Origin: a virus
Lineage: Duplodnaviria > Caudoviricetes
Strand: one strand, 5' to 3'
Virus record (IMG/VR): IMGVR_UViG_3300046724_000647
Span: 1-62,908 of that record
Length of the DNA: 62,908 nt
Shown piece by piece: positions 9,694 through 61,753 of the stretch. The position numbers and the translations under genes were made by a program. Under the pieces are notes generated by a model. The model saw only the letters and a program-made list of their open reading frames with translations, made no database searches and was not told the origin of the DNA. The first letter of the stretch is position 1; every line of letters starts with the position of its first letter.

Positions 9694-9739
9694 GATTGTT
9701 CCCTTTCTTGTTTTGGTCGTTTCCGTTGGACGTCGGCGC

Positions 9740-11045: not shown

Positions 11046-11117
11046 GTTTTCCCTTTCTGTTCGTTCGTTAAATAGTGGGGGAGTCCAGCCGGGGGAAAGA
11101 CTCCCCCGGCCGGCTGG

Positions 11118-12263: not shown

Positions 12264-12306
12264 TTCGTATCTCCCTTTTTCCCTACCATGCCTTGGCTAG
12301 CCATTG

Positions 12307-12363
12307 TGGGAATGCTGCGTGCAGGAATCGAACCTGCACAAAGTAGCGACCTGCTACGCAGTA
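12307..12363 (-). ncRNA. anticodon-less mini tRNA-like fold overlapping a stop codon
   Basis: TACTGCG/CGCAGCA acceptor-like stem, TAGC-AGGTC-GCTA, canonical GCAGG-TTCGATT-CCTGC T-arm. Confidence 0.5.
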
Positions 12364-12518
12364 ACGTCTTCAGTCTCAGTGTCCAGCGTGATGCAAAACA
12401 CCCTACCAGTCACGTGAGTCTCGGTCGCACGCTTGGCTACTTCTTTATTGGTCTCGGTCGTGAGGATGGCTAACGCTCGGACAGCATCAGGCAATTGATT
12501 GAAGTTCATGTTATTCAT
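12354..12518 (-). CDS. 54-aa first early protein (absent from the ORF track)
   Basis: AGGAGG RBS; MNNMNFNQLPDAVRALAILTTETNKEVAKRATETHVTGRVFCITLDTETEDVTA*. Confidence 0.75.
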   Translation of the reverse strand: MNNMNFNQLPDAVRALAILTTETNKEVAKRATETHVTGRVFCITLDTETEDVTA

Positions 12519-12562: not shown

Positions 12563-12716
12563 ACGATGAATGGTTATAAGTCAGTGTCTTAGCGTTTCAG
12601 ACTATCTCAATTGTGCCGTGTTTTGTCATAAGGAATGACGTATTCTGTCAGAACGATATTTGAGCGTGGACGGAGTTATGTCAATACATTTCTTGTAACT
12701 CGTGACGTAAAATGTT

Positions 12717-13127
12717 ATGGTCCGATCCATGATTAGAATCACCTTGGATTTAATAGAGGGAATCGATCCTAAGGCGGTCGCCGATAGTGCGGTTATCGCA
12801 TGGCTGAAAGCCTGTCAGGTTCCTGGCGAAAGTGAGGCGGCCATGGCGAAACGCTTAAAAGTGAGTTATCGCATTCTGCGTTACTGGCGCGACAAACAGA
12901 TTCCACCTACCGCCACGCTGGCCGGTATCTCCGATGAAACCGACATTCCCCAACCTTGCGAATTCTGCGGAAAACCCGATGGAACCCACCAACATCATGT
13001 GGTCAATCGGCACGATTCGCCCGTCACTGTTACCCTATGTAGCACATGCCATCGTAAGTTCCATTTCCTGAATCGCTTGTATGCCGCACCTACCAAAAAG
13101 GCCAGCAAAACCGCCATAGTGGAATAA
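12717..13127 (+). CDS. HTH-HNH fusion protein
   Basis: EAAMAKRLKVSYRILRYW; CEFC...HQHHV...VTLCSTCH. Confidence 0.75.
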   Translation: MVRSMIRITLDLIEGIDPKAVADSAVIAWLKACQVPGESEAAMAKRLKVSYRILRYWRDKQIPPTATLAGISDETDIPQPCEFCGKPDGTHQHHVVNRHDSPVTVTLCSTCHRKFHFLNRLYAAPTKKASKTAIVE

Positions 13128-13129: not shown

Positions 13130-13860
13130 GTATTCCTGGAAACCGTCAATCCCTTTATTCCCTTTCCCCTCAACGTTCTCCACCCTTTCTCCCTTTTCCT
13201 CATGATAGATATCTCTTTCCCCTTCCACACTGCCGTAGGCCGAAGCGAAGCGCGACAGCGCGAAGTGAATCCCTTCCACATTCCCCGTGCTCACCTGCGA
13301 CAGCGTGAGCACACGCCGAAGGCTTCCCCTTCCCTTCCCGTCAGTGTGTTCGAAGTTCCCTTGGAACTTGCGAACGCGCTGACTGCCTTTCCCCTTGGGA
13401 CACCACACCACACGACAGCGTTTCTCCCTTCACGCTTCGGACAGCACATGGAAGGATGAACGCCTTCTGAGAAGCTTCACTTGAATGAGAAAGGGAAGGC
13501 CAGGAAATCGCGTTTTGCTGTCGCGACAGTCACTTACGGGGGAATGTCTCCCGCCACCATAACGGTACTTATGCGACATTGAATTGTAAGTGTTTCATTC
13601 CCCTGTAGTTGCGCGCGCGGTTTCGGATTATGGAGCAGTCCCCCGCCGACATTGGCAGTCAGGTCCAGTAGGCTGGCGCGATCGGCTGGCGCGCGAGTTG
13701 TCCGGAAAACGCGGCCGCGCGTAGGCATGGACGCCTTTGCCCCACCTGGTAACAAAAAAATCCCAAAGCTTTCGAAAAAAAAAGTGACCGGACAAAAGGA
13801 ATGGAAAACAAAAGGCAAATAAAAATCGCGCAAAATAATTCATTTTTCTGGTAGAGTGCG
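13130..13860. other. non-coding divergence region, probable genome end/packaging region
   Basis: TTCCC pyrimidine runs, CGACAGCG x3, IHF-like TAAGTGTTTCATT (13587), phased A-tracts 13754-13835, TGnTAGAGT at 13849. Confidence 0.5.
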
Positions 13861-13866
13861 GAAACT

Positions 13867-14118
13867 ATGGCAAATTCGATACACATATCGGCGAGAGAGA
13901 TGGAGTCTATCTCGCGTCGATTGAAGGCGATACGGAAGGAATTACTGGTGACTCAGTATGAGTTGGCGGAATTGATGGGGTTGACGCAGCCGACGATCTG
14001 CACATTGGAGACGAAGAAGGCGGTGGGAATCAGTCAGGGGACGTTGAAAAAGATTCGGAATTTCGAGCAGAAGTTGTTGTTGACGGGAACAGCGGCGACG
14101 ATGAGGGTACCGCGGTGA
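13867..14118 (+). CDS. XRE-family HTH regulator
   Basis: TQYELAELMGLTQPTICTLE. Confidence 0.85.
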   Translation: MANSIHISAREMESISRRLKAIRKELLVTQYELAELMGLTQPTICTLETKKAVGISQGTLKKIRNFEQKLLLTGTAATMRVPR

Positions 14119-29149: not shown

Positions 29150-29242
29150 TGCGTCGTTCGAATAGATTCCGTCGTGCCCCTTTCTCCTTTAAGGGATTCA
29201 CCAACGGCCTTTAGAAACAATTTCTAGGGGCCGTTTTCTTTT
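29150..29242 (+). ncRNA. about 90-nt attenuator/sRNA with an anti-SD loop
   Basis: CCCTT-TCTCCTTT-AAGGG hairpin followed by an intrinsic terminator. Confidence 0.5.
29203..29242 (+). terminator. intrinsic terminator upstream of scaffold/capsid genes
   Basis: AACGGCCTTTAGAAA-CAA-TTTCTAGGGGCCGTT then TTCTTTT. Confidence 0.75.
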
Positions 29243-32730: not shown

Positions 32731-32768
32731 GGCGTCCGTCCGGCGGTTTTCGGACGGGCGCCTTTTTC
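32731..32768 (+). terminator. intrinsic terminator after the head genes
   Basis: GGCGTCCGTCCG/CGGACGGGCGCC then TTTTT. Confidence 0.8.
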
Positions 32769-34988: not shown

Positions 34989-35333
34989 ATGCACTTTAAG
35001 GTTGGAGTTCTAATTACTGGGATGTTGGCGAGTATGCCAATGGCATTCGCTGTCGATTTTTCGCATCCCCCCGCCGCGCTGACCGGTTGGATGGGGTTTG
35101 TCATTGCATTGTTTGGCGTGCTGGGGCTTCTGCAACTGGGCCTGGTGAAATATATCCTCAAGCCGGCCATTATGGACGAAATGAAAGGGATGGTGTCGGG
35201 TGTGGACTTCAAGGCCCATACCAGTGACGACAAGCGATTCCAGGACGATGTGAACGAATTCATGGGGGAAGTTCGTGACGAATTGGGGATTGAACGTCGA
35301 AAAATGGCCCGCCGCAAGGGGGATCCCCGGTAA
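34989..35333 (+). CDS. membrane protein, putative holin
   Basis: Two hydrophobic segments and a charged tail, directly before the endolysin. Confidence 0.55.
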   Translation: MHFKVGVLITGMLASMPMAFAVDFSHPPAALTGWMGFVIALFGVLGLLQLGLVKYILKPAIMDEMKGMVSGVDFKAHTSDDKRFQDDVNEFMGEVRDELGIERRKMARRKGDPR

Positions 35334-35722
35334 TGGACTGGAGTAGCATCAAGCATTTCAAGCCGAAGGAATTCGATAGTCCGGACCTGCCGGGTTCTGG
35401 CGACAGCATGGACTTTGGATTCGTCAAGAAACTTGACGTTCTCCGGGATCTTTGCGGCTTTCCACTGATCGTCGCTTCCGGCTACCGAACCCCGGCGCAC
35501 AACACAGCGGTTGGAGGATTGGCCGCTTCGGCGCATCTGACCGGAGAGGCGGTCGACATCCGATGCCTGACGACTCAGGCGCGGTTCCTGATTCTGGGAA
35601 ACGCGTTCAGTCTCGGTTTCAGGCGGGTTGGAGTCGGCGACGCATTTATTCATCTCGACGATTCGGCAACGCTGGATCAACGGGTGTTTTGGTTGTATCC
35701 ACCGAAGACGGCCATCACTTAA
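35333..35722 (+). CDS. endolysin, peptidase M15 family
   Basis: SGYRTPAHNTAVGG...SAHLTGEAVDI...FIHLD. Confidence 0.9.
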   Translation: MDWSSIKHFKPKEFDSPDLPGSGDSMDFGFVKKLDVLRDLCGFPLIVASGYRTPAHNTAVGGLAASAHLTGEAVDIRCLTTQARFLILGNAFSLGFRRVGVGDAFIHLDDSATLDQRVFWLYPPKTAIT

Positions 35723-35734
35723 AAGGGGGTTTCC

Positions 35735-35929
35735 ATGCCACTGATTTACGTCGTCATCGTCCTGCTCGTGGTTGGAGTTCTGCTATACCTGGTCAACACG
35801 CTGCCGTACGTCGATGCGAAGATCAAAACGATCATCAATGCAGTCGTCCTGATTGTGGTCGTTCTCTGGGTGTTGCAGTTGTTTGGAATTCTCGACTACC
35901 TGACCACCATCAGGGTTCCGCGCCGCTGA
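35735..35929 (+). CDS. two-TM membrane protein (Thivi_2564-like)
   Basis: VVGVLLYLVN...DAKIKTIINAVVLIVVVLWVLQLFG. Confidence 0.75.
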   Translation: MPLIYVVIVLLVVGVLLYLVNTLPYVDAKIKTIINAVVLIVVVLWVLQLFGILDYLTTIRVPRR

Positions 35930-35931
35930 GA

Positions 35932-35994
35932 CAAAAAAAGAGGCCGGGACACCGATCCCGGCCCGCAAACAAGAAAGGTTTAATACATGAACAG
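35932..35994 (-). ncRNA. about 60-nt sRNA complementary to early-gene translation starts
   Basis: TGC-TAGAGT promoter (36000-36008), single-stranded UGUUCAUGUAUUAAACCUUUCUUGUUUG, terminator GGCCGGGA/TCCCGGCC + T7. Confidence 0.65.
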
Positions 35995-36012
35995 GAGGCA
36001 CTCTAGCACGCG

Positions 36013-37356
36013 ATGGCGTATTCGTACATAAGTTTTGGGCAAATGAAGACGGCTCTGGCGCAGCGCCTGACCGATCTGACCAAGCAGTTCTGGTCGGATG
36101 CGGAACTGGGCGCCATTGTGCTGGAATCCCTTCAGTCGTTCAATGCGATGGCGAATTTCTATCGTGAAGAGTTCACGTTCAACACTCAGGCCAATATCAC
36201 ATGGTACGACCTGACCAACAATACGCAGATTCCGTCGACGTTGCGCGTCATGTCTCAAACCGATCTTTCGGTACTGAACATGATGCAGTACCACCTGCTC
36301 GAGCCATTGACGTCGACCTATCCACTGGCATGGACGGGCTCTTTGCAGTTCAGCATTACCGATCTTCTCAACGCCTTGCAGCAGACCCGCGACGAGGTCC
36401 TGTCCGATAGCCTCTGCACGATCACCGAAAGCCTGATCAACGCGCCGATCGGGCGAACGTTCCTCCTGCAGACCGTCATCGGCCTCCGCCGCGTGGTCTG
36501 GATTCCCGCTTCATCTGGATTTTCGCTCAACACCCTGGTTCCATCGGATCTCTGGGCTCAACAGTCCTTTGAGTCCGACTTCGCGCAGTCGCCAAACGGA
36601 ACCCCGGCCACCTATCGGTTGTCGACCGAACCCCCTCTGGGATTCGATGTGGATATTCAGCCTGGCGTTCCGGGCCAATACGACATCCTGACGGTGAATG
36701 CGGGCGGGGATTTGACGATCGCGAATTCCACGATCCTGCCGATTCCCAACGACTGGTGCTGGGTGACCAAATGGGGCGCGCTGGCTCAATTGCTGGGACG
36801 CGACAGCGTGGCTGCGGATCCATTCCGCGCGAAGTACTGCGAAATGCGCTATCTGGAAGGAATCACCGCCATGAAATCGGCGCCGGCGCTTCTGGGCGCG
36901 CGCATCAACAACGTTCCGGTGACGATCACTCCGGTTACGGCCGGAGATTTCTACGATGCCAACTGGCAGGGACAGGCAGCCGGAGTGCCGGCGGCGATTT
37001 ACTATGCCGGGTTGAATTTGATCGGCCTGGCGCCGACGCCGCTGACGGCGTTGAACTCCGTGACGGCCAGCGTCGTTCGAAACATGGTACTTCCCACACT
37101 CGATGCGGACTTCGTCCAGATTGCCCGGGATGATCTCTCGGCGGTGCTCGACGAGGGCCAGCACATCGCCATGTTTAAGTGCGGCGGTGCTGAATTCGCG
37201 TCCACATTCCCACTGCATGGGAACTTCCTGCGACGGTGCGCCGTCCGGAATTCCAAACTGATGGCCATGTCGCTGTTCCTCGAGTTCATGGATGGACAGG
37301 GACAGGGCGATGAACGCCTCCATCCGTCGTTCCAGGGAGAACTGGCTAAATCGTGA
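36013..37356 (+). CDS. putative adaptor/tail tubular protein A-like
   Basis: LAQRLTD...FWSDAEL N-terminus with internally repeated adaptor-like modules. Confidence 0.6.
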   Translation: MAYSYISFGQMKTALAQRLTDLTKQFWSDAELGAIVLESLQSFNAMANFYREEFTFNTQANITWYDLTNNTQIPSTLRVMSQTDLSVLNMMQYHLLEPLTSTYPLAWTGSLQFSITDLLNALQQTRDEVLSDSLCTITESLINAPIGRTFLLQTVIGLRRVVWIPASSGFSLNTLVPSDLWAQQSFESDFAQSPNGTPATYRLSTEPPLGFDVDIQPGVPGQYDILTVNAGGDLTIANSTILPIPNDWCWVTKWGALAQLLGRDSVAADPFRAKYCEMRYLEGITAMKSAPALLGARINNVPVTITPVTAGDFYDANWQGQAAGVPAAIYYAGLNLIGLAPTPLTALNSVTASVVRNMVLPTLDADFVQIARDDLSAVLDEGQHIAMFKCGGAEFASTFPLHGNFLRRCAVRNSKLMAMSLFLEFMDGQGQGDERLHPSFQGELAKS

Positions 37357-37371
37357 AGGTGAAATCGAACC

Positions 37372-38934
37372 ATGTTTAAGATTCAAGGCTGGGTTGAAAA
37401 GGGAAATACCGTCATTCAGACGTCAGGGTTGCCGTCCTCCAACAAGGCACAGGGATCATTTCCAAGCGCGCTGGTGACCGTGATCATTCACGGGACAGCC
37501 ACCCTGGCAACGCTCTACTCCGATGACAATCTTTCGCCGACGCCGCTGGCGAATCCATTCACGTCCAATTCGGACGGATCGTTTGGCTTCTACGCGGTCA
37601 GCGGTCGATATGACATCACGTTCTCCGGCGGCACGCTGACCGCACCGTTCACCTTGTCGGATGTGACCAATGGCGCCGGCGGAGGCAGCGGTAACGTGAT
37701 CGGGCCATTATCGGCGGTCAACAACGACGTTGCCGTGTTCGATGGAGTCACGGGAAGTTTGATTAAGGACAGCGGCCAGACGATCGCGCAGATCATCGCT
37801 TTGGCCGGCGTGACTCTTCCGAGTGTCAACGACGGTCGATTGACGCTGGCATCGGGATTCCCAGTGTTCGCGCCGGTTCCGGCGACACCATCATCGACGA
37901 ACACTGGAACCGAAATCGTCACCTTCGCCACCGATCCGGGATGGCCAACGGGAACCATCGTCACTCCGGCCAGCACCTTGGCAGGACTGACAGCCGGAAC
38001 ACGTTATTATTTCGGGCGTCTCTCGAGTTTAACCGGAGCGTTTTATACGTCGCTGGCAAATGCGAATGCGAACACGAGCAAGGTCGACCTGACGGCCAGC
38101 GTGACGCAGCAGATCATTCCCAGTGGAATCACGCAAACGTCGATCATCTTTACTCCCTATAAGGGCGACAAACTTAGCCTGTTTGACGGAGTGTCCACAT
38201 GGACGACGATCAGCTTCATTGAGACCTCTCTAGCCTTGGGAACACTGACGTCTGGGCTTCCTTACGATGTGTTCGCGTTCAACAACAGCGGAACCATGGC
38301 ACTGGAACTTCTGGCCTGGTCCAGCGCAACAGTCCGCGCAACGGCCATCGTCAAGCAGAATGGCGTGTGGGTCAAAAGCGGGGCGACGACACGGCGATTG
38401 CTGGGGAGCATCTACACCGATTCCACATTGACGACGATCGACGATGCTGGCGGAATTGCATCGGCCGTAGGGGCTCAACGCTACGTTTCCAACCTTGAAA
38501 ATCGAGTGTCGGCGCCGGTCTACGTTTGGATGAGTGGTTCCTGGAACTACTCCAGCGCGACAGTCGAGCAAGCCAATGCGACTGCCGGCGCGAAGGTCAG
38601 TCTGATGGATACGATTGGCGATGCCAAGATTGATCTCAGTCTTCTCGTACGGCTCAACAATACGATCATCGCAAACGGCGGATCGGCTGGATTCGGAACC
38701 GACAGCGTGACCGTATTTGATAATTTTCACGGCAGCGTTTGTAATCCGGTGTCGAATGCCGCCAACAACCCCGCGACCGGCAGCGCGAATTATCGGAATC
38801 GGTTGCTGGGAAAGCACGATATCAATTGGCTGGAAAATGGTACAGGTTCCGGCGTGTCGACGTGGTGGGGCCAGAATGCCTTGACTGCCGGTAATGCGAT
38901 ACAGGACGGAATCGTCGGAGATTTTTTGTGTTGA
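37372..38934 (+). CDS. tail fibre/spike protein
   Basis: ATLYSD...PLANPFTSNSDG...FYA N-terminal anchor pattern; Thr/Ser/Gly-rich beta domains. Confidence 0.75.
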   Translation: MFKIQGWVEKGNTVIQTSGLPSSNKAQGSFPSALVTVIIHGTATLATLYSDDNLSPTPLANPFTSNSDGSFGFYAVSGRYDITFSGGTLTAPFTLSDVTNGAGGGSGNVIGPLSAVNNDVAVFDGVTGSLIKDSGQTIAQIIALAGVTLPSVNDGRLTLASGFPVFAPVPATPSSTNTGTEIVTFATDPGWPTGTIVTPASTLAGLTAGTRYYFGRLSSLTGAFYTSLANANANTSKVDLTASVTQQIIPSGITQTSIIFTPYKGDKLSLFDGVSTWTTISFIETSLALGTLTSGLPYDVFAFNNSGTMALELLAWSSATVRATAIVKQNGVWVKSGATTRRLLGSIYTDSTLTTIDDAGGIASAVGAQRYVSNLENRVSAPVYVWMSGSWNYSSATVEQANATAGAKVSLMDTIGDAKIDLSLLVRLNNTIIANGGSAGFGTDSVTVFDNFHGSVCNPVSNAANNPATGSANYRNRLLGKHDINWLENGTGSGVSTWWGQNALTAGNAIQDGIVGDFLC

Positions 38935-50423: not shown

Positions 50424-51424
50424 ATTCTGCCGACACCATCACCGCCTTCGAACTCTGCCAACGCAAAGCCTACTTATCCCAACGCTGGGAACGACACAAG
50501 CTTCTACCGAGCGAAATGTTACGCATGGGAGTGCTGGCCGGGCTCACCATCAAGGACCACACCGACTACGGCGAATTCGCTGGTGAGGAAGTGGTGACGC
50601 TGGCTTCCGAACGTGGAATGGACATCGATCGCGACAAACACAACGTGTACCGCGCGGTGATGAATCACGCCGGTATCGCCGACATTGTCACGACCGCGAT
50701 CCGCAAAGAAGGTCAATCGGCCTGGCTGCCGATCGGAAAGTCACGAGACATTAACTGGAATAGTTCCTGTCTAATCGATCCGACCGGAAACTTCCTCCGG
50801 CGATTTGTTCCCGCCGGAAGTTGGAATCAGGAACGTCAGGAACACGAGATTCGTTCGTGGTACGGACTGGCCGAAGTCTGTATGGCGAAGCTTCCGATGC
50901 AGATGGTGGTGGCGCAACTGGGGAATATGAACGGCGGCCGACGCCACGGCCATTGGTCGAAAGCGTTACTTCACCCGCGGAATGCTGGCATCCGATTCAA
51001 GCTTCGCAGCCGTATGACGATCGATGGCTTTAAGGAAACATGGATTCCGGTCTGGCGCGAGGAACACGATGACATCGGCCGGCAACGGTGGCTCGACGCC
51101 ATGCACGAAGACCGTGTCCTCGAGGAAGTCTTATTCGTCGTCGACATCCCACTTCCTGGCGAACTCGAGGCCCAGCGGATCCGTGACATGGCCAGCCGGA
51201 AACTTGATGAGATTTCTAAACTAACGGCACTTCCGGAGAAACAGCTTTCAACGTGCGATGGGCCTCTGGCGCCATGCCCATTCCGGGGATGTTGCTGGGG
51301 AGAACCAGAAATGGCTCCGTCGTCCCCACTGTTTGATGCTGTCGACGGAACCACGGCTCCCACTCTGCAGACCAGAGATTCTTCCAATCCAGACGCGGTG
51401 GCAGCAAGGTTTTTCGCAAGGTAA
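50420..51424 (+). CDS. degenerate Cas4/PD-(D/E)XK-like protein
   Basis: FELCQRK plus C-terminal CDGPLAPCPFRGCC; no clear D-x-K motif. Confidence 0.55.
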   Translation: MNSADTITAFELCQRKAYLSQRWERHKLLPSEMLRMGVLAGLTIKDHTDYGEFAGEEVVTLASERGMDIDRDKHNVYRAVMNHAGIADIVTTAIRKEGQSAWLPIGKSRDINWNSSCLIDPTGNFLRRFVPAGSWNQERQEHEIRSWYGLAEVCMAKLPMQMVVAQLGNMNGGRRHGHWSKALLHPRNAGIRFKLRSRMTIDGFKETWIPVWREEHDDIGRQRWLDAMHEDRVLEEVLFVVDIPLPGELEAQRIRDMASRKLDEISKLTALPEKQLSTCDGPLAPCPFRGCCWGEPEMAPSSPLFDAVDGTTAPTLQTRDSSNPDAVAARFFAR

Positions 51425-52547
51425 ACCGGTCCTTATTCTCGGATCGTTTCAATTCCTTCTTGATCTTCCATGCCCATTTCTTCGGATCGTAGACCGGCCG
51501 TACCGAATTGAAGATCCCTTCGACTCGGAACATTCCCGGCTCGATCATCATCTCCGCGTCCATGTGTTCGGCGTGGCCGCCGTAGTTGCCGGCGATAACC
51601 GGCGTGCCGCACGCGAGGCTTTCAAAGATCGGAAAACCGAAACCTTCCGGACCGATCCCCAGGGTCAGGTCACAAGCGGAGTAGAGTTTCGCCATGGTCT
51701 CGTCGCTGACCAGACCGTTGTTGATGATCGCCCGGTGCATCAGGTTGTAGTCCTCCAGCAGTTTCATGATCGCCCAGTGCCGTTCGTTGGTATCGATTTG
51801 GATGAAGATTCGAATCGGGATCTCTTTTGCGACCTCCTCCAACGCCTCCATGGCCAGGCCGTAGTCCTTCCTCATCTGGTTCGTCGCCACGATCCCGATC
51901 AACTTCTCATTGTCCTCAAAAACGATTTCCTGCCCGAAGTCGGTACGGAAGACCGCGCGCTTGTTCATCCCCTGATGGGGATGGAAGATCGTGGAATGGA
52001 TCCCGTGTGGAATGGCTACCAGTTCCCGCTTTCGGCAGTCCTGTTCGGAGAAGGTGTTTTCGATGACCTTCTTCGCCCATTCACTGTAGGCAATGATCCG
52101 ATCGAACCCGTAGAGACATTGTGCGTTTGCGTTGCAGAGCATGTTCTTGGGACCGGCAGCGTCCATCGGCGCGTAGATCCATTTTTGGAACGGCCGCGAC
52201 AGCAGCCACTTCCGCATTTCACGATCGTTCAACCATTCTGGATTGTCCGGCCGGCCGAACCAGAGCATTCGACTGGCATCCCAGATCGTCAGCACGGCGC
52301 CCTTTCGACCTTCGGAGAAGTTTTGCCAGACGTCCTTCACGGCGGGAATGAAGAAATCGTTCAGTCCCTCGATTGCGTACTGAGGGAATGGAAGCCGGCG
52401 ATCGCCCGGGCCACCGTAGCCTAGAGTTCCAACGTCATAAAGATCGTTCAGGTGATGGTGGATGCCCAGCGCCAGGTCTTTGCAAATCCGGCCCAGTCCG
52501 CTGGAAGAGGATGGCGCGTCACTGATAATCAGAAGCGGCACTTTCAT
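51216..52547 (-). CDS. glycosyltransferase, GT-B fold (GT4-like)
   Basis: IPHGI, VATNQMRKDY, LYSACD, EGFGFPIFESLACGTPVI. Confidence 0.9.
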   Translation of the reverse strand: MKVPLLIISDAPSSSSGLGRICKDLALGIHHHLNDLYDVGTLGYGGPGDRRLPFPQYAIEGLNDFFIPAVKDVWQNFSEGRKGAVLTIWDASRMLWFGRPDNPEWLNDREMRKWLLSRPFQKWIYAPMDAAGPKNMLCNANAQCLYGFDRIIAYSEWAKKVIENTFSEQDCRKRELVAIPHGIHSTIFHPHQGMNKRAVFRTDFGQEIVFEDNEKLIGIVATNQMRKDYGLAMEALEEVAKEIPIRIFIQIDTNERHWAIMKLLEDYNLMHRAIINNGLVSDETMAKLYSACDLTLGIGPEGFGFPIFESLACGTPVIAGNYGGHAEHMDAEMMIEPGMFRVEGIFNSVRPVYDPKKWAWKIKKELKRSENKDRFTLRKTLLPPRLDWKNLWSAEWEPWFRRQHQTVGTTEPFLVLPSNIPGMGMAPEAHRTLKAVSPEVPLV

Positions 52548-52575
52548 TCTTGGTTCAAGTCCTTTCGGTGCTGAA

Positions 52576-53133
52576 TTATTCGCCGGGGATGATCACCGGG
52601 TGGTCCGGAATCAGGTCCTGGCCCGATCCCAGATCCGGAAGCATGTCATCAGGATCGTTGGAGGACAACTGGACGTGCATGGCGCCGCCCTGGACCTTGG
52701 CGCCCTTTTCCACCAGCGGGTGCGGTTTGATCATGTGGGCGAGATGTGCGGGAACCTGAACTCCGCCAACCAATGAACCGGTGGCCACGCGCGGAGGAAG
52801 CGGTTGCCGGAGAACGTTCCGGGCCTCCATGGCCTCGGATTCAATCGGCGGCATCTTGTCTGCCGCCAGCAGATTCGGCATCGGACCGGAGTGTCCTTTC
52901 TGCAGATAATCCTCGAGGACCTGTTTCACCTGTTCCAGTCGTGGAATCTCTTCCTCGAGTGCCATCTTCTGATGGAGGATCCGTTGATAGTCCAGACACG
53001 CTTTCTCGTATCGGCGTGTGGCCTGATCCAGCGCGCGCGCATACGGACTGCGGCTGACCTTCCGCTTCACCTTGACCTTCGGTATCCTGACGAGTCGAGC
53101 CTTCGGTTTGATTTTACGCATCCGGCGCCCCAT
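52576..53133 (-). CDS. hypothetical coiled-coil protein
   Basis: ORF within the glycan cluster; start uncertain. Confidence 0.6.
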   Translation of the reverse strand: MGRRMRKIKPKARLVRIPKVKVKRKVSRSPYARALDQATRRYEKACLDYQRILHQKMALEEEIPRLEQVKQVLEDYLQKGHSGPMPNLLAADKMPPIESEAMEARNVLRQPLPPRVATGSLVGGVQVPAHLAHMIKPHPLVEKGAKVQGGAMHVQLSSNDPDDMLPDLGSGQDLIPDHPVIIPGE

Positions 53134-53836
53134 GTCCGAACAGGGCGTAGTACGGTGGTGTCCCCACCTGAACTCCCCACTTCTGTTCAAACGTGCGACG
53201 GTCTTTCTCCGCCTGGGCTTCGATCATCGCCTTCTCGCCCGGACTCGCGGATTTCAAGGTTCCGCTGGCGTAGTGGTAGAACGGAATGCCGATCGTGTAC
53301 GCCTCGATCCCGGCCTTGTGCATTCGCAGGTGGTAATCCCCGTCGGACGCGTAGAGCCACATCGACTCGTCGAATCCCCCGACTTTGTCCCAGACGTGCT
53401 TGCGAATCAGGAAGCAACTGAAGTCCGGATGTGGCCGCGGTGCCTTCCGCCATTCGCCTCGGATCCCTTCCATGTTGTCGACGCTGACGGCAGTGACGAA
53501 GTCCCCGCCGTCCTCGAGAAGTGATCGGTAGGTATCGGGACGAAGGACCACGTCGTTGTTCACGACCAGCGCGTGATTGCAACGTCGGAAGATAGTGGTC
53601 AGCGCGTAGTTCCATCCGGAGGACACGCCTTGCGCCGGCCGGAACGTCGTCGTGTTCGGACAGAAGCTTTCCAGCCATTCGGTGGTTCCGTCCTGACTGT
53701 TGTTGTCCACCACATGCAACTGGACGGGAATGTCCTGTTCCAGTACGGACTGAACGGCCTGTTTCGTCAGCGCCAAGGAATTCCTGCAAAGCATCACAAC
53801 CGGGTTCACACCGGTATAGTTGAGTTCTCGTTTCAT
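53114..53836 (-). CDS. glycosyltransferase family 2
   Basis: VVDNNSQDGT, VVNNDV, VGGFDE...SDGDYHLR. Confidence 0.9.
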   Translation of the reverse strand: MKRELNYTGVNPVVMLCRNSLALTKQAVQSVLEQDIPVQLHVVDNNSQDGTTEWLESFCPNTTTFRPAQGVSSGWNYALTTIFRRCNHALVVNNDVVLRPDTYRSLLEDGGDFVTAVSVDNMEGIRGEWRKAPRPHPDFSCFLIRKHVWDKVGGFDESMWLYASDGDYHLRMHKAGIEAYTIGIPFYHYASGTLKSASPGEKAMIEAQAEKDRRTFEQKWGVQVGTPPYYALFGHGAPDA

Positions 53837-54363
53837 TGATTCTCCAAATTGTTTAATTGGGCAAAGTCACCAAAATGTTTGATAGCGGCTTCGTTGTAGG
53901 CACAGGCGGCTTCTTCCTGAGTACTGAACCAGCCAATATTGATTAAGATTCCGCTCACGCGAATCCGGCAGCGCCAAGGCTTCGTCAGGGTGTCTCGCTT
54001 GTGGACGAGAGAATAACTGACCCCTTTAAATCTCGAGGCTTTTTGCCTTGTGCGCTCACTGACTCGAAGGGTCCTTTGATTTTGCATGTTCTGGGTTTGT
54101 GTGGCGCGCCTCAGATTCTCGCGTTGATTGTTCAGCCCGTCTCCGTCCCGATGGTCGATCCGGATTTTGCTACTCACGTCGTATATTTCGTGGTGCATGA
54201 GTCGCCGCCGATACTTCTTTGGTGCGGTCCTGATGTACCGAAACGCGTAAGATCCATGACCGTCGCTCCGCTTTTTCTCGCACCAGACAAACTGAGAAAG
54301 GTGCGGGAAATCTTCATCGTCGACCGACGCCAGTCGGCCATTACTCAGCCTTATGAATTTCAT
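53833..54363 (-). CDS. HNH-AP2 homing endonuclease
   Basis: IDHRDGDGLNNQRENLR; AACAYNEAAIKHFGDFA. Confidence 0.9.
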   Translation of the reverse strand: MKFIRLSNGRLASVDDEDFPHLSQFVWCEKKRSDGHGSYAFRYIRTAPKKYRRRLMHHEIYDVSSKIRIDHRDGDGLNNQRENLRRATQTQNMQNQRTLRVSERTRQKASRFKGVSYSLVHKRDTLTKPWRCRIRVSGILINIGWFSTQEEAACAYNEAAIKHFGDFAQLNNLENQ

Positions 54364-54878
54364 TTGACGCAGCACACTCCGAGGATCCACCAGTCACGTG
54401 CTATGTCAGCACCAGGGATTGTTTCCCAATCAAAGAGAGAAACGTCTCTCCATTCGGCCGCCCGACTCAGATCGTTAATAAGGTAATCGCGACTGTATCC
54501 GAATTTGTGGCGATCGCCTGGCTCTCCCTGATAGGCGCCGTACACGTTGACCATGTAGAGATAGTCTTCAAGTTCTCCGGCCAGCCATCGCCTCGCCAAT
54601 GCTTCCATGTCCGGAACCGTGATGATCAAACTACCGCCCGGCGCCAGCACGCGGTGACATTCCTTCACCAGCGCGTGGCCTTCACCCAATCCGAAATGTT
54701 CGTAAACTTGGTGCAGGACAACGTAATCGATCGTTTCGTCTTCGTAGGGAAGCGGATCATTACCGACGTCCAGAAGCAGATCCGGAACCTGGCCCGGCCG
54801 GCTGACGGCATCGATGTTCACCCATCCCTCACTGACGTCGAAGCGGCGCTGACCCGAACCAATGTTCAAAGCCCTCAT
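54360..54878 (-). CDS. class I SAM-dependent methyltransferase
   Basis: LNIGSG, VYEHF, RVLAPGG.LIITVPD. Confidence 0.85.
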   Translation of the reverse strand: MRALNIGSGQRRFDVSEGWVNIDAVSRPGQVPDLLLDVGNDPLPYEDETIDYVVLHQVYEHFGLGEGHALVKECHRVLAPGGSLIITVPDMEALARRWLAGELEDYLYMVNVYGAYQGEPGDRHKFGYSRDYLINDLSRAAEWRDVSLFDWETIPGADIARDWWILGVCCVK

Positions 54879-55627
54879 CGCGGTACTCCATGGGGAAGAA
54901 CATCCTTGAACTCGTCGTAGATGTACCGGTGCGAGTCGATGTATTGTTGCCAGTGTTTGGGATCGTCGCCTTTCCCCATCTTCACGAATGTCTGGCCGCC
55001 CAGATGATCACACGCCACGCCTACCAGTCGGATCCTCGATCCCAGCCGACGCGTCATGCAGGACAGCCAGTAGTCGTAGCAAACGTATCCGATCGGCGTG
55101 TTCAGCGGCCAGCCACCGGCATCCTCCAGGACCTTGCGCCGGACGATCAACGCGAATCCGTCCAGCACGGCCACATCACGACTGCCAGTGAATCGTTCTC
55201 CGTGGTTCTCCGCGTCTCGCATGTTGGACGCGAACCCGTGCCGCCCCAGTTGCCTGTAGTCGTAAGGGTCACGGTAGATCCCACCGGTTCCGTGTGCGGT
55301 GGCGCCACCGAATCCGACAAGGCCGACGTTGGGATCCTCGAACTCGGCCAGAACGCGCGCGACCCAATCCGGATCGCAGATGATCGTGTCGTCGTGCAGG
55401 TAGGCGATAATCTCCGCGTGCGACGTTTCGAGTCCATTGGCGTAGGCCGGAAGCATTCCGTCTCGGCCGTCCATGACGAAAATCTGTGGATAGCAGTCCG
55501 TCAATACGAATCCAAGGTTGTCGGCCATCGGGATCTTCCGGCTATCCATGGCATCGCCGCCCCAGCTTGCGATTGCTTTCCTCAGACTCTCGGCGCCGGC
55601 GTGAGCAGTCACAATGCACATCTTCAT
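54875..55627 (-). CDS. glycosyltransferase, GT-A fold (GT2-like)
   Basis: IAYLHDDT, VGLVGFGG, AVLDGFAL, CYDYWLS. Confidence 0.85.
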   Translation of the reverse strand: MKMCIVTAHAGAESLRKAIASWGGDAMDSRKIPMADNLGFVLTDCYPQIFVMDGRDGMLPAYANGLETSHAEIIAYLHDDTIICDPDWVARVLAEFEDPNVGLVGFGGATAHGTGGIYRDPYDYRQLGRHGFASNMRDAENHGERFTGSRDVAVLDGFALIVRRKVLEDAGGWPLNTPIGYVCYDYWLSCMTRRLGSRIRLVGVACDHLGGQTFVKMGKGDDPKHWQQYIDSHRYIYDEFKDVLPHGVPR

Positions 55628-56235
55628 AGAGGAATCTTGCCTCCGTAGAATGCTGTGTTGTCGTTCCACCGGGTGAACCGACTGGTGAAAAGTCCGTGCT
55701 CTGCAAACAGAGCGATCCATTCCTTGTCGGTCTTCGTCTGTTCGTTTGGTTGGTCGAAATGAGCCCAGAGTTCGTTCGGGCAGTAGAAGTAGAACCTTCC
55801 GTCGTACTTCAGAAGCGCATGGATGTTATCGAGCGCGGAGGGGAGATCGACGATGTGTTCCAGCGACCCGATGCTGACGACGAAGTCGAACTTGCCAACG
55901 TGAAAAGAGTCCGTGTTTGTAAGGGTGAAGCCGTCGCCAATATCCGCCAGTATCAGCGTTGCTTCTGGAGCACGTAGAGTGGCGTGAGCGATCCCGATGC
56001 GACTCAGTTCAATTCCGACGCAACTGACGCGCTTAACCGCTTCCTGTAGAAAGTGTCCGGCGCCGCAACCGACGTCGAGCAACCACTTCTCTTTGTCGTA
56101 GGGCACCATCATGTCGTTCAGGTGGCGGTTGACCTCTTCGGGAGGGGTGTGCCAGCCGTCGCCCATCTCGACGTATTTCCTGTTGTACCAATCACCGAGT
56201 TCCTTCGAATTGTCGAACTGTTTCCTATCTGTCAT
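55624..56235 (-). CDS. class I SAM-dependent methyltransferase
   Basis: LLDVGCGAG, GIELS, SLEHI. Confidence 0.9.
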   Translation of the reverse strand: MTDRKQFDNSKELGDWYNRKYVEMGDGWHTPPEEVNRHLNDMMVPYDKEKWLLDVGCGAGHFLQEAVKRVSCVGIELSRIGIAHATLRAPEATLILADIGDGFTLTNTDSFHVGKFDFVVSIGSLEHIVDLPSALDNIHALLKYDGRFYFYCPNELWAHFDQPNEQTKTDKEWIALFAEHGLFTSRFTRWNDNTAFYGGKIPL

Positions 56236-56237
56236 TT

Positions 56238-56441
56238 TCAGTCTCCAAATTCAGGATTAGGATTCTTTCGAATCCATTCCTTCAAATCTTCGAAATCAAT
56301 CTCAATAAAGTTGTATCCAGCTTCATTGAAGGCGACAACAACAAGACGGCCAGTTCCGGACTCGCGTCTCAGTTCAACATCCATTTCTTCGGCATATTCG
56401 CGGACACCTTCCATTACGAGAGATTTGGCGCTTATGCTCAT
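56238..56441 (-). CDS. small hypothetical protein
   Basis: ATGA overlap; RLVVVAFNEAGYN. Confidence 0.7.
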   Translation of the reverse strand: MSISAKSLVMEGVREYAEEMDVELRRESGTGRLVVVAFNEAGYNFIEIDFEDLKEWIRKNPNPEFGD

Positions 56442-56992
56442 CGTTTCCTCCAGACGCCCAACGTGCCTTCGGTGCAGATGTATTCCCATTCCTGATGGGC
56501 CAGCATGTATCGGTTCACGGCCGCCCAGACTCCGGGCAAGCTTTCCCGGCCGTAATCGTGGAACATCGCATATCCACCAACCGAGACGTGCGGTAGAAAA
56601 TGATCGCAATCCCGGTAAACCTGATCTTCCTCATGGTCGCCGTCGATCAAAATGGCGTCGATCGGTGGTGTGACCGTGAATGCGTCACTGATAATCCGGT
56701 GAATCGCGTACAGGGCTCCGGACTCGTCGGCCATCTTCGCCCACGCATCGAAAGCCTCTTGACCATCGGCTTCGTTGAACGGATCCACGCCGGCGTAACT
56801 CAAGCCGTGTTCCCGTGTGACCTGCAGCGCGATCGAACTCGATCGTCCCCACTGTAGCCCCACTTCGATCACCCTGGATCCCGGTGGCAATGACGACAGG
56901 ATGTGGAAGTAAAGCCGGGCCTCGGGTTCTTCGAACGCCGCGCTGGAACTGAAGCGGGATGTGAATAGGTACGCCTCTTCAAATGTCAGCAT
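56438..56992 (-). CDS. SAM methyltransferase (Methyltransf_24-like)
   Basis: IEVGLQWGRS, ILIDGDH, MFHDY. Confidence 0.85.
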   Translation of the reverse strand: MLTFEEAYLFTSRFSSSAAFEEPEARLYFHILSSLPPGSRVIEVGLQWGRSSSIALQVTREHGLSYAGVDPFNEADGQEAFDAWAKMADESGALYAIHRIISDAFTVTPPIDAILIDGDHEEDQVYRDCDHFLPHVSVGGYAMFHDYGRESLPGVWAAVNRYMLAHQEWEYICTEGTLGVWRKR

Positions 56993-57227
56993 CTTTGTTC
57001 CTCTTCCATTGACCAACGTGAACGATCGGGACCGCGATAATGGCGTAGGTGATTTCGTCGAGCCCTTGAATGTATTTCGACATTCGCTCCGCGCTGGCCA
57101 ATTCGAAATTGACCTTCGATAACGCGTCTTTGTACTCCGGATGGATCGATTTGAAATCCAGTGCGTGGGCTCCGGCGCTATGGAAGACGGCATACCAGGT
57201 TTCCAACGGTTTGGGATTATTGCTCAA
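56979..57227 (-). CDS. small hypothetical protein
   Basis: TTG start overlapping the upstream stop. Confidence 0.55.
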   Translation of the reverse strand: MSNNPKPLETWYAVFHSAGAHALDFKSIHPEYKDALSKVNFELASAERMSKYIQGLDEITYAIIAVPIVHVGQWKRNKDADI

Positions 57228-57775
57228 GGTTTCCTCCGAATCGCCAGTCCGTCCCACACACCCAGGTCTTCCCAGCCGGCCGTGAACTTATCCACGGCGA
57301 TGTTCACATCCGGAAAGCAACTGTTGTAATCGTGGAAGCACGCCACGCCGCCGGACTTCACCTTCGGCAGCCAGAGTTCGCAGTCCAGTGAGGGACCGCC
57401 GTCGGGAATGTTGTCGAAGTGGTACGCGTCGATGTGAATCAGGTCCAGCGGTTTGTCGACCAGTGTGGCTCCCTCGGTAGACTTCACTCGAGCGAGGAAA
57501 TAGTCTGCATTAAAGGACTCCATGAGCCCTTGCACCTTCGGTTGGTTTTCAATCAGCACACTTTCCCAACTGTCGACGAGAACGAACGAAACTTTGCGCC
57601 CGACTGTACCCTGAAGCATGACGCTCAGACTCCGCCCCTGATCGACGCCCACTTCGGCAATCGTTCCACCCTTGGGAACATTCAACGCCAGTGCGTAGAG
57701 TTTCTCCGCGCTCAACTGCGTGAACGAACCGGGAATCTTATCGGTGAATGCCCAGACCTCTTCGAATGATTTCAT
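57224..57775 (-). CDS. SAM methyltransferase (Methyltransf_24-like)
   Basis: AEVGVDQGRS, IHIDAYH, CFHDY. Confidence 0.85.
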   Translation of the reverse strand: MKSFEEVWAFTDKIPGSFTQLSAEKLYALALNVPKGGTIAEVGVDQGRSLSVMLQGTVGRKVSFVLVDSWESVLIENQPKVQGLMESFNADYFLARVKSTEGATLVDKPLDLIHIDAYHFDNIPDGGPSLDCELWLPKVKSGGVACFHDYNSCFPDVNIAVDKFTAGWEDLGVWDGLAIRRKP

Positions 57776-57981
57776 CTTCCAGCCCCCTGTTGATTTCCAA
57801 CTTCGACGCCTTCGTTATAGGCTTCGTTCATCCGTTCGCAGATGTATTCAGCCTGTTCTTTGTCTCCGAAGTCAGTGCTGATATGGGTGTCTTTATCGGT
57901 ATCGAGTACAGTCCAAAATCCGCCTTCGTTACAGGTCGGACATGGCTTCTTGGTTTCCTCTACGATGTAGCGTTCGTTCAT
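57772..57981 (-). CDS. small hypothetical protein
   Basis: ATGA overlap; CPTC. Confidence 0.65.
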   Translation of the reverse strand: MNERYIVEETKKPCPTCNEGGFWTVLDTDKDTHISTDFGDKEQAEYICERMNEAYNEGVEVGNQQGAGR

Positions 57982-58718
57982 AGGATTTGTAATGCCCTCG
58001 CCCACGGAATCATGGCCGCGTCTTTTCCCGTTTCCGGATCGGTGTATCCCCCCGACAGGTGCAGGATGCAGGGCCACCTTCCCGTGACCCGGTTGTAGAG
58101 CCGCGGTGTGGGCTCGGTCATTTTCTCTGGCCCGACGGTATCCATGATTTTTGCGTTCACATCCGACACTTGGAAGATGTCGCACCCGCTGTCCAGTTTC
58201 GGACGGAACCAGCCTTGCCGCCAGCCCCTGTAGTATTCGAAACAATCATCACCGGTGAGCCCATCCTGCGACAGCATCCGTTCGAAAGCTTCGATCATCG
58301 CCGGAATCTCGGCAATCATCCCACCGCGGTTTGGATATCGATATGGAATGGATTCGTCAAAGCAGCCGACGTACTTCGACATGTCCGATTCGTTGCCAAG
58401 GCCGATGTATGCAGACATCAGGATCGGTGGTGCTCCCAGTTTCTGGTACTTCTCGACTATTTCCGTCCATGGAGCACAAAGGAAGGCATCCCAGGAATCG
58501 CTAAAACAGTAATGGGAGTAATCGTTGACGATGGTTTTCAGGAAATCCAACTGCATATCCATCATCATTCGTCGGTAACCTTGAAACGCCTGTGTTCCGA
58601 CGCCATACAGTAGTGGTTCGACTCCAAACTTCTCGCACGAACGAAGAAAAATCCATAACTTGCGCCGCGCCTCTTCTTCGGTCGGCCACACTCCGGCGGT
58701 GACAAGGGCCATCTTCAT
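57978..58718 (-). CDS. PLOD/lysyl-hydroxylase-type glycosyltransferase domain protein
   Basis: FSDSWD, YRYPNRGGMIA, DDC, KLDSGCDIFQ, PCILHLSG align by eye to the PLOD GT motifs FTDxYD, YLNSG, DDQ, LDxxxxIFQ, HGNG. Confidence 0.7.
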   Translation of the reverse strand: MKMALVTAGVWPTEEEARRKLWIFLRSCEKFGVEPLLYGVGTQAFQGYRRMMMDMQLDFLKTIVNDYSHYCFSDSWDAFLCAPWTEIVEKYQKLGAPPILMSAYIGLGNESDMSKYVGCFDESIPYRYPNRGGMIAEIPAMIEAFERMLSQDGLTGDDCFEYYRGWRQGWFRPKLDSGCDIFQVSDVNAKIMDTVGPEKMTEPTPRLYNRVTGRWPCILHLSGGYTDPETGKDAAMIPWARALQIL

Positions 58719-59227
58719 GAAGCCTTCTTTCGTTTATTGAGGCGCTGTTCTTCCCACGTTGCCCATTTGCAATTCCCCGGTTCGTAGTTGCCGTTTACCA
58801 GAACGCGTTCGATCGTCCAGTTAGATTCCGGTTTTGGTCCGATGTCCGAAATGAAGTTCTGAAACGAATGTAGCCATCTTTCGCACACTGTAATTCCACG
58901 GCCACCGTAATATTTGTAAGCTTTGTTTTTGGGATTCGTGCATCGAGCGATCATTCCGGCCCACGAATAGTACTCGGTACTCATGACGCCATCAGAGCAG
59001 TGTCCATGCTTCCGCTTGCCCTTTTTGATTAAAGCGATCTTCTGACAACCGCAGCTTTTGACATTCCCAGACTGTAAGTCACCGCCCCGATGGATCATTT
59101 CGCTTCCACAGACGCAACGGCATCTCCATACCGTTCCAGTGAATTTCATTTCTGGCGTGCGGGGTAACTGTGAAACCACAAACAGTGAACCGAATGTCTG
59201 TCCTTTTAACTGAAGGGCTCTATTCAT
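58715..59227 (-). CDS. HNH-type homing endonuclease
   Basis: WRCRCVCG, SCGC, YGGRGITVCERW, NGNYEPGNCKWAT. Confidence 0.9.
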   Translation of the reverse strand: MNRALQLKGQTFGSLFVVSQLPRTPEMKFTGTVWRCRCVCGSEMIHRGGDLQSGNVKSCGCQKIALIKKGKRKHGHCSDGVMSTEYYSWAGMIARCTNPKNKAYKYYGGRGITVCERWLHSFQNFISDIGPKPESNWTIERVLVNGNYEPGNCKWATWEEQRLNKRKKAS

Positions 59228-59906
59228 TGAACACGACCTTCCCTTGCAATCCGTTGGCTTCTATCAGCCTGTCGTTTTGCTCCTTTAATTGGTCGTAACC
59301 GACGATCCTTTCGCCTCGACTGTTTACCAGTCCCGTATGAATGACCATGTGTGGGTTCGAAACCGCAAAGTCGTAACCGAGATTTCTGGCGCGAGAACAG
59401 AATTCGAAATCTTCGCTTCCCGATGGTCCCCCAGGTTCCTGCCAGTAGCCAATCTCATCGAATGAGGTCCAGCGCATAACCATTGCAACCGAACTGATTA
59501 GTAGTGGAAACCTAGCAAAATCGACTGCCTCCCGGGGCTCTTCTATGTTGAATGGATGGCCATACGGACTCATGATTGTTCGATCCAGGCGATCCGCAAT
59601 TTCCTGAATGACGCGGTCCCAGTGCTTGAGAAAAAAGCAATCATCGTCAGCGAACATTACCAAATCCTGTCGGCGGTACTTCGGAATGGATCCGGCGCCG
59701 ATGTTGCGCGCGGCCGAAGCGCCCTGTGCCTTGGTGTTGTGGATGACCGTCGATCCAATCGTGAACATTTCTGGATACAGCGGATCTCCATCGCCGACCA
59801 GAGTGAGCGTATGGTTTTCCCAGACGTCGGCATTATCAACAAGGCTTGAAATTGTTTGCCAAAGCAGGTCTTTCCGTTTGCCAGTACTGATTATTACGAT
59901 GTTCAT
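59220..59906 (-). CDS. glycosyltransferase family 2
   Basis: GASAARNIGA, MFADDD, SEDFEFCSR. Confidence 0.85.
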   Translation of the reverse strand: MNIVIISTGKRKDLLWQTISSLVDNADVWENHTLTLVGDGDPLYPEMFTIGSTVIHNTKAQGASAARNIGAGSIPKYRRQDLVMFADDDCFFLKHWDRVIQEIADRLDRTIMSPYGHPFNIEEPREAVDFARFPLLISSVAMVMRWTSFDEIGYWQEPGGPSGSEDFEFCSRARNLGYDFAVSNPHMVIHTGLVNSRGERIVGYDQLKEQNDRLIEANGLQGKVVFNE

Positions 59907-60124
59907 TCTTCCCAAAAACTTTCTACTTTAGATTCGGTGGCTCCGCGGTGAACCTTCAGCCAGTCGATGAATGTCAGGTAGTCCTCTTTGTCTCTGTCCA
60001 GTTGTCTGTACCACGACCGATAGTCGAGATAAGCGGCATCCATACTCAGATCGTCCGGAACGTCCACCATGTCCGCGCTGGCATCGGTCCAATCGCCACC
60101 GCCCTTTATCAACACACTTTTCAT
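59903..60124 (-). CDS. small hypothetical protein
   Basis: ATGA overlaps at both ends. Confidence 0.7.
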   Translation of the reverse strand: MKSVLIKGGGDWTDASADMVDVPDDLSMDAAYLDYRSWYRQLDRDKEDYLTFIDWLKVHRGATESKVESFWEE

Positions 60125-60678
60125 TTCCGGATGATGACCAACCCGTCATCCCTCCCCTTTTCGCCCTGCCAGAATTCGCCGCCAAACTCATTGACCAGCA
60201 AGGCGCCGTACTGCGGCCAGACGTCCTCGATGACATACAGCGTTCCCACGGGCATGTAGGGAACAAAGAAGTCCGCCGTGGTTCTCTGGTGTTCGTATTC
60301 GTGGGAACCGTCGTCGATGATCACGTCCGGAAATCGCTTGCACATGTAAGCCACCCGCAACAGGTCGATCTCTACGGTCTGGTCGCAAACGATCGACTGG
60401 ATCCGCCCTTCGTTGACCAGCGTGTCTTCTCGAATGTCGCACGCGAAAATCTTGGCGTCGGGAAAGTACTCCTCCCACATGTGGAGACTTGACCCGTGGA
60501 CATACGCCAGACTCCCTAGGAACGGCTGCATCAGGTCTTTGTAGCCGATGCCGAACTCGAGCAACGTTTCCACCTTGCGGTCCTTGAACAACTCCTCGTA
60601 TTTCGGCAAATAGGAGTGCCAATACAGTTTGTCGCTGTGGTACTTCTGGCCCAATTCCATCAGTGTCGGCTTCATCAT
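60121..60678 (-). CDS. MycE/TylE-like sugar O-methyltransferase
   Basis: SDK..HSY, LLEFGIG, GSSLHMWEEYFP, CDQT, IIDDGSH, YVIED. Confidence 0.8.
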   Translation of the reverse strand: MMKPTLMELGQKYHSDKLYWHSYLPKYEELFKDRKVETLLEFGIGYKDLMQPFLGSLAYVHGSSLHMWEEYFPDAKIFACDIREDTLVNEGRIQSIVCDQTVEIDLLRVAYMCKRFPDVIIDDGSHEYEHQRTTADFFVPYMPVGTLYVIEDVWPQYGALLVNEFGGEFWQGEKGRDDGLVIIRK

Positions 60679-61742: not shown

Positions 61743-61753
61743 AGGTACTCTCC

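Follow-up and report, generated by a model that had tools for sequence, protein, structure and literature searches.

The Intergenic Locus and Its Surroundings

In the late region of an uncultured soil phage, a small unit is located on the minus strand between the gene of a Thivi_2564-family membrane protein and the gene of a conserved 447-aa late protein. The phage is represented by an IMG/VR virus record of 62,908 bp with direct terminal repeats, and this entire stretch is referred to as the window. Read on the minus strand, the unit consists of the box TGcTAGAGT, a 28-nt unstructured stretch, a GC hairpin and finally a C followed by U7. All sequence elements that a preliminary description of the unit (35932-36008) had named were found at their positions. 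The locus comprises the following features:

35333-35722, plus strand: Peptidase_M15_3 endolysin-like gene (PF08291, 9.2e-14; phrog_894), two genes upstream
35735-35929, plus strand: gene of the 64-aa Thivi_2564-family membrane protein (NF041949, E 1.3e-13)
35933-35940, minus strand: C plus U7 tract (A7 on the plus strand), directly after the hairpin
35941-35964, minus strand: GC-rich terminator hairpin, core GGCCGGGA / TCCCGGCC (fold and terminator scan)
35965-35992, minus strand: predicted single-stranded 5' portion of the RNA, GUUCAUGUAUUAAACCUUUCUUGUUUGC, free of pairs in the MFE and centroid folds
35972-35978, plus strand: SD-like motif AGAAAGG, 8 nt ahead of the ATG at 35987; complement of the CCUUUCU seed of the preliminary description
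35987-36031, plus strand: upstream ORF (uORF) of 14 codons, overlapping the start of the 447-aa gene in a different frame
35993-35998, plus strand: AGGAGG, 14 nt ahead of the ATG at 36013 and just outside the predicted antisense overlap
36000-36008, minus strand: extended -10-like box TG-c-TAGAGT, covering -13 to -5 of the 447-aa gene start region
36013-37356, plus strand: gene of the conserved 447-aa late-region protein, with the conserved start MAYSY

A codon-usage gene model yielded 98 genes in the window, which are arranged as follows:

413-4698, 8900-12518 and 50519-62883, minus strand: gene blocks of the gene model
12717-50423, plus strand: late block of the gene model, containing the unit (35932-36012)
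23388, plus strand: terminase-like gene of the late block
30527, plus strand: major-head-like gene of the late block
8900-12518, minus strand: early operon, the block called early in the preliminary description
9740-9928, minus strand: Lar-like zinc-ribbon gene of the early operon
10101-11045, minus strand: clamp-like gene of the early operon (weakly DNA-polymerase-III-beta-like)
11118-12263, minus strand: DUF932 gene of the early operon

For the 447-aa protein no match was obtained in Pfam, PHROG, NCBIfam or PDB, and a PDB profile search with the whole family returned nothing meaningful. The Thivi_2564 family (NF041949) scored 50.8 bits in the window and 78.6 bits in the related viral record G001 (cut-off 33); a literature search for 'Thivi_2564' found no paper. 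Among the phage proteins scanned, no integrase or lysogeny module was present.

A Predicted Terminator Opposing the Late Operon

The RNA predicted from 35992 to 35933 folds with -19.4 kcal/mol and a fold z-score of -3.07. Its hairpin (35964-35941) has 10 pairs with 7 GC by one scoring and 8 pairs by another. On the minus strand the sequence has all parts of an intrinsic terminator, namely a GC-rich stem, a short loop and a U-run; on the plus strand no T-run lies behind the hairpin, which does not qualify as an intrinsic terminator in that direction. Under strict criteria (at least 8 pairs, at least 7 GC and at least 7 T of 8), 35964-35933 was the only match on either strand of the 62.9-kb window, and none of 40 dinucleotide shuffles of the window contained one. 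The terminator is oriented against the late operon around it. With looser criteria, other strong intergenic terminators were detected only at 29203 and 32731, both on the plus strand and both with T-runs. This indicates that the phage uses canonical terminators and that a hairpin without a U-run is not the local style.

No minus-strand gene was found that would account for the terminator; both flanking genes are on the plus strand and have good coding scores. A search for tRNAs and tmRNAs found none, and at gathering thresholds Rfam gave no match in the window, the best sub-threshold scores for the unit being 12-21 bits. A minus-strand shadow ORF of 72 aa (36001-35783), which has 74 aa in the homologous locus of G001, was rejected as a gene, since it is the codon-aligned antisense of the Thivi_2564 gene, crosses the terminator and was not chosen by the coding-potential model.

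A Promoter-Like Box Ahead of the Hairpin

The box at 36000-36008 is built like an extended -10 element, in which TGn directly precedes TAnnnT, and the aligned site of G001 has the same build (TG-c-TATGGT). TAGAGT agrees with the consensus TATAAT at 4 of 6 positions and no -35 element was found, which counts against an antisense RNA. The preliminary description had pointed to a second copy of the hexamer near 13852, and this copy was confirmed: TGNTAGAGTGC occurs exactly twice in the window, at the unit (minus strand) and at 13849-13859 on the plus strand. With up to one mismatch, 1.7 occurrences of TGNTAGAGTGC are expected by chance, which was likewise counted against an antisense RNA. The second copy (TGgTAGAGTGC) lies in an AT-rich control region, 9 nt ahead of the ATG of a regulator gene:

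13867-14118, plus strand: HTH_3 (Cro/CI-type) regulator gene (Pfam) of the control region

This location is suggestive, being the one where the promoter of a nearly leaderless mRNA would be expected. Since the 11-mer TGnTAGAGTGC is shared between the unit and this site, it fits a real promoter type, although the extended -10 motif class was picked post hoc. A homologue of the HTH gene at 13867 was not found in G001. A further intergenic site is TGtTATGGT at 12713, whose hexamer is that of the G001 unit.

Conservation in a Related Phage

Homologues of the 447-aa protein were collected in three scans, which yielded 3 viral loci, 54 metagenome loci and 42 viral loci. Upstream sequence was sufficient in 51 loci, and among these a terminator-like element precedes the gene only in L003, where it is on the minus strand; L003 belongs to the record G001. 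Among the 42 viral loci a minus-strand terminator was present only in this same contig, with L148 showing a weak one on the plus strand, and the exact hairpin pattern matched solely the G001 contig when viral contigs were searched. In L002, whose neighbouring gene shares 77% identity, the stop codon of the endolysin gene (67% identical to that of the window) abuts the ATG of the 447-aa homologue (TAAATG), and the Thivi_2564 gene, the hairpin and the spacer are absent. As L002 and, apart from L003, all loci of these two sets are devoid of the unit, it is dispensable for the 447-aa gene family, which counts against an antisense RNA.

In G001 the flanking proteins are 69% (447-aa protein) and 59% (Thivi_2564 protein) identical to those of the window. 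Here, the Thivi_2564 gene is followed by A6, the hairpin TCGGCCGGG/CCCGGCCGA, a spacer and the ATG, and on the minus strand T6 comes directly after the stem. An alignment of the two phages reveals three conserved blocks, namely the A-run, GGCCGGG...GATCCCGGCC and AC..TAGCAC.C.ATGG. The third of these contains, when read on the minus strand, GTGCTAnnGT and hence TG-n-TA...T, the five critical bases of an extended -10 element; the two positions that vary are its least critical ones. In an ungapped reading, 35 nt separate the end of the -10 box from the stem and 48 nt the stem from the ATG in both phages; in the same reading the first 33 spacer positions are identical at 7 and the last 15 at 11 positions. 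The predicted RNAs have a length of 60 nt in the window and 62 nt in G001. The claim of a self-contained minus-strand unit resembling a small RNA gene is thereby upheld, as the terminator, the U-run, the critical -10 bases and the spacings are kept, with the comparative support coming from two phages plus close strains.

On the plus strand less is shared. Neither AGAAAGG nor the AGGAGG of 35993-35998 is present in G001, and its uORF has 9 codons of unrelated sequence with a stop 6 nt before the ATG, so that frame and length are not conserved. Between the Thivi_2564 stop and the A-run of G001 (L003 2896-2919), AGGAGGGG is followed after 4 nt by a minimal start-stop ORF, ATG-TAG, which is not found in the window.

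A single-sequence scan of viral contigs with the 64-aa protein gave no confirmed relatives; viral Thivi_2564 loci were found when a two-sequence alignment served as the query. Of 63 such loci outside the window, only four have strong downstream terminators:

G001 contig
L074 and L083: minus-strand tRNA-Ala
L101: convergent 113-aa ORF

In two unrelated viral contigs (L074 1775-1850 and L083 1779-1856) a tRNA-Ala(CGC) gene with its own terminator lies downstream of the Thivi_2564 gene and converges with it. Since backward terminators elsewhere end real minus-strand genes and none is visible here or in G001, a small non-coding unit, or a relic retained for another reason, is left.

Variation Among Close Strains

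A megablast search with 35000-37500 against phage sequences found no near-identical phage records. Contigs from four DNA runs of four studies (X3, X4, X5 and X7) were compared over 35300-36500. X3 and X4 have 183 unalignable letters in place of the Thivi_2564 gene body (35731-35914), with flanks that are 95-99% identical; 35731-35914 is a mosaic or allele-swap hot spot. Both contigs rejoin at 35915, so that the terminator goes together with the sequence to its right, independently of the Thivi allele.

Neither X3 nor X7 differs inside the unit (35933-36008), the sole difference of X3 within 35915-36175 being at 36053, and X5, whose contig begins at 35964, has no difference in the part of the unit that it covers. 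X4 (~95% identical) has 24 differences in 510 nt, of which six fall within 35964-35981 (35964, 35965, A>T at 35968/9, a deletion at 35971, and 35981) and none within 35982-36041. Throughout X3, X4 and X7 the hairpin at 35941-35964 is unchanged except for 35964 in X4. As read from the alignment, X4 lacks the letter at 35940, so that eight A abut the stem and U8 follows it on the minus strand. AGAAAGG is retained in X4 despite the changes that flank it, and the ATG is intact as well.

Complementarity to Start Regions of the Early Operon

The preliminary description had proposed that the RNA acts in trans and masks SD and AUG of the early genes 9693, 11045, 12518 and 9928, which would lead to early shut-off or immunity. 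The pairing with gene 9693 is literally right, AAACAAGAAAGG-N7-CAUGA matching over 12+5 nt with equal spacing. For gene 11045, AGAAAGG and ACAUGAACA do match, but the spacing is unequal, with a gap of 4 nt in contrast to 6 nt in the seed. The match ACAUGAAC at 12511-12504 is present to the letter and lies inside the first early ORF. These pairings mean only that the plus strand of the unit, AAACAAGAAAGG-N7-CATGA, looks like an SD followed by an ATG.

To score the duplexes, 97 start regions (-30 to +20) were called and combined with the 28-nt seed. The two best duplexes are both early (gene 9693 with -26.4 and gene 11045 with -24.1 kcal/mol), and only 4 of 300 dinucleotide shuffles of the seed reached the best energy. 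Such shuffles are the wrong null, since the SD...AUG arrangement is destroyed by shuffling. Control seeds were therefore derived from the real start regions (n = 97), by taking their antisense in the register of the seed. These controls were equal or better in 50 of 97 cases for the best energy, in 58 of 97 for the second-best and in 66 of 97 for the mean of the top five, which makes the energies ordinary for the antisense of a start region. The pairing of the seed thus surpasses that of dinucleotide shuffles, but not that of antisense start regions. Two of the outcomes that the preliminary description had named as refuting its model therefore largely apply: the matches do not exceed those of SD regions at large, and the plus-strand ORF at 35987, with its AGAAAGG and ATG, accounts for the sequence.

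With respect to exact matches, the 12 nt shared with gene 9693 are slightly unusual, since none of the 97 control pairs reaches 12 and their maximum is 11. In contrast, the second and third exact matches have 8 nt each, and a longest match of at least 8 nt was found in 89 of the 97 controls; the 19 of 28 ungapped identities of the seed were reached by 9 of 97. Early starts make up four of the top nine matches compared to eight early genes among 97, a bias that only one control seed out of 97 reproduced, the start region of gene 7586. As this control shares the GAAAGG-type SD of many early genes, the bias reflects the SD flavour and not necessarily regulation. SDs of the GAAAGG(G) type occur at many start regions of the early operon (8900-12518).

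A trans-acting RNA would further be expected to conserve its seed, and this is not the case between the window and G001, nor in X4 with its six changes in 35964-35981, where the 12-mer to gene 9693 is broken. When the pairing analysis was repeated for G001 with 96 called start regions, its equivalent seed of 28 nt (GUCGGAUGGUUUCUC...) was found to have no anti-SD, and 74-76 of the 96 control seeds paired better. The ten starts of the early block of G001, the minus-strand block with the homologues of the clamp-like and 380-aa proteins, ranked at 38-92 of 96. A homologue of gene 9693 was not detectable in G001 or G002, nor one of the clamp-like gene in G002. The conserved seed with conserved targets that the trans model needs is therefore absent. 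Considering the controls, the unconserved seed and the broken 12-mer, the multi-target anti-initiation RNA directed against the early operon is not borne out, and we regard it as very unlikely. The anatomy of the unit is real and conserved; long-range silencing of early genes is not supported.

In general, complementarity of a small RNA to SD plus AUG is uninformative where the opposite strand is itself SD- and AUG-like. The proper control for such pairing is the antisense of real start regions and not shuffled sequences.

A Candidate Cis-Antisense RNA

The observations at the locus comprise the signature of a terminator and the direction in which it points, as well as the fact that terminator, U-run, promoter-critical bases and spacings are conserved. 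Since G001 keeps the hairpin core, the U-run, TGcTAnnGT and the spacings, and the strains keep hairpin and U-run, a minus-strand RNA of ~60 nt is plausible. We tentatively favor, with a probability of roughly 0.4, a terminator-ended RNA of ~59-60 nt that would be cis-antisense over the leader and the uORF start of the 447-aa gene.

This RNA would come from a small transcription unit that lies within the late operon and converges with it. An extended -10 promoter without a -35 element (36008-36000, minus strand) may start it near 35992, a 5' end placed according to the -10 position, and the orphan intrinsic terminator (35964-35941 plus U7) may end it near 35934, which would give ~59 nt. Provided that late transcription extends across 35930-36012, the RNA would be complementary without mismatch to the late mRNA, covering the hairpin of the plus strand as well as the SD motif AGAAAGG and the start codon of the leader ORF of 14 codons. 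Because this complementarity concerns the late mRNA between the Thivi_2564 and 447-aa genes, an action in cis is proposed. Either the start of the leader ORF would be masked and, by coupling, the 447-aa gene would be less translated, or the duplex would be cleaved and the lysis-side and structural-side mRNA thus uncoupled. Promoter firing, 5' end and mode of action are what we infer from the sequence. Two further points speak against an antisense RNA. The 5' end near 35992 would leave the AGGAGG of the 447-aa gene uncovered, and the conserved GTGCTA occupies -9 to -4 of the 447-aa start region, where a role on the plus strand, or a location at the border of a recombination block, could account for its conservation.

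The locus may also be explained without any RNA gene. The hairpin would then be a 3' stabiliser or processing site of the plus-strand mRNA after Thivi_2564, or an insulator or relic of a convergent terminator, and the 'seed' would be the RBS and start of a leader ORF from which ribosomes pass on to the 447-aa gene. We consider this quite possible, if short of even odds. It fits that AGAAAGG-N8-ATG on the plus strand resembles many start regions of the phage and is retained in X4 while neighbouring bases vary, that a short uORF ends at or near the 447-aa start in both phages, and that the antisense of any start region pairs equally well with other starts. Furthermore, the block of Thivi_2564 gene, hairpin and spacer is an insertion relative to L002, and in L101 an A-run with a GGCCGG hairpin after the Thivi_2564 gene serves a convergent ORF. 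However, a plus-strand hairpin needs no A-run, and the A-run is kept in G001 and even tightened in X4. The uORFs of the two phages have neither frame nor length nor sequence in common, and that of G001 has no SD. Given how far the two phages have diverged, a relic would be expected to have decayed like the 33 nt next to it. The terminator persists even through the exchange of the Thivi allele.

A combination of both directions can be imagined as well, in which the RNA, transcribed from a promoter of the late region, would act in cis on the 447-aa leader, while in this phage lineage its CCUUUCU...CAU tail would mask the GAAAGG-type starts of 9693, 11045 and other early genes in trans; we rate this as highly improbable. 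If true, a single small RNA would exert a late-to-early shut-off in a phage whose uncultured host is probably acidobacterial.

Comparison to Known Phage RNAs

The sar RNA of phage P22 originates from an intercistronic promoter directed against the operon. In the sections of PMC12197685 on these RNAs, it is described as 68/69 nt long, antisense to ant and base-pairing with its start region, thereby blocking initiation (PMC12197685). On this description the candidate RNA is similar, as a small phage RNA of comparable size that is predicted to pair with a start region. In contrast, sar controls an antirepressor in the immunity region of a temperate phage, while here the leader of a late structural/lysis region would be concerned, and the two have no sequence relation.

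The OOP RNA of phage lambda is presented in the same sections as a terminator-ended antisense RNA of 77 nt, convergent with a long transcript and acting via duplex formation and RNase III (PMC12197685). So described, it shares with the predicted RNA the short length, the terminator and the convergence with a long phage transcript. OOP differs in overlapping the 3' end of cII and in serving the choice between lysis and lysogeny; here, a 3'UTR and a leader between late genes are overlapped. Further antisense RNAs mentioned there are STnc6030 of prophage BTP1, which has 786 nt and faces the tailspike gene, and PAK_P4as15, located at an endolysin gene (PMC12197685). According to these entries they likewise belong to late or lysis regions of phages, but are much longer or overlap coding sequences, whereas the RNA predicted here has ~60 nt and is purely intergenic.

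Trans-acting sRNAs of the enterobacterial Hfq type (MicC, SroB, SorX) resemble the unit in the unstructured 5' seed, the terminator hairpin and the U-tail. However, the Rfam scores are far below threshold (20.6 vs. 90 bits for MicC and 17 vs. 46.6 bits for SorX) and the seed is unconserved. If the unit is real, P22 sar, lambda OOP, STnc6030 and PAK_P4as15 would be its closest known counterparts, with no Rfam family matched.

Should the RNA exist, it would represent a compact sar/OOP-like antisense regulator in the late lysis/structural region of a soil phage with relatives in Acidobacteria MAGs. We know of no RNA regulation in the acidobacterial host group. It would also provide a search signature for metagenomic phages, namely an orphan terminator opposing the operon together with an extended -10 box 35 nt upstream.

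Further Observations on the Phage

A scan of genome contigs detected distant homologues of the 447-aa protein at six loci (30-36% identity). The MAGs that contain them are labelled Acidobacteria, Terriglobales and once Acidimicrobiaceae, which gives a weak hint at an acidobacterial host.

The two plus-strand terminators (29203-29235 and 32731-32762) lie inside the late block, ahead of the genes 29261 and 32784. Their position suggests that late transcription involves read-through or antitermination.

In the divergent control region, TGtTATGGT (12713-12731, plus strand) overlaps the first ATGs of the ORF 12717-13127. Judged by sequence, this site and 13849-13869 resemble extended -10 promoters of mRNAs that would have little or no leader. 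The divergent operons are separated by a large non-coding region, in which 13181-13525 contains short direct repeats rich in C/T (in G/A when read on the minus strand) as well as an imperfect inverted repeat of 24 nt.

On the minus strand, 51216-59906 harbors a cluster of at least six glycosyltransferase-like genes, one of them a sub-threshold GT_PLOD match, together with four methyltransferase-like genes (Pfam). Such a cluster is uncommon cargo for a phage of 63 kb.
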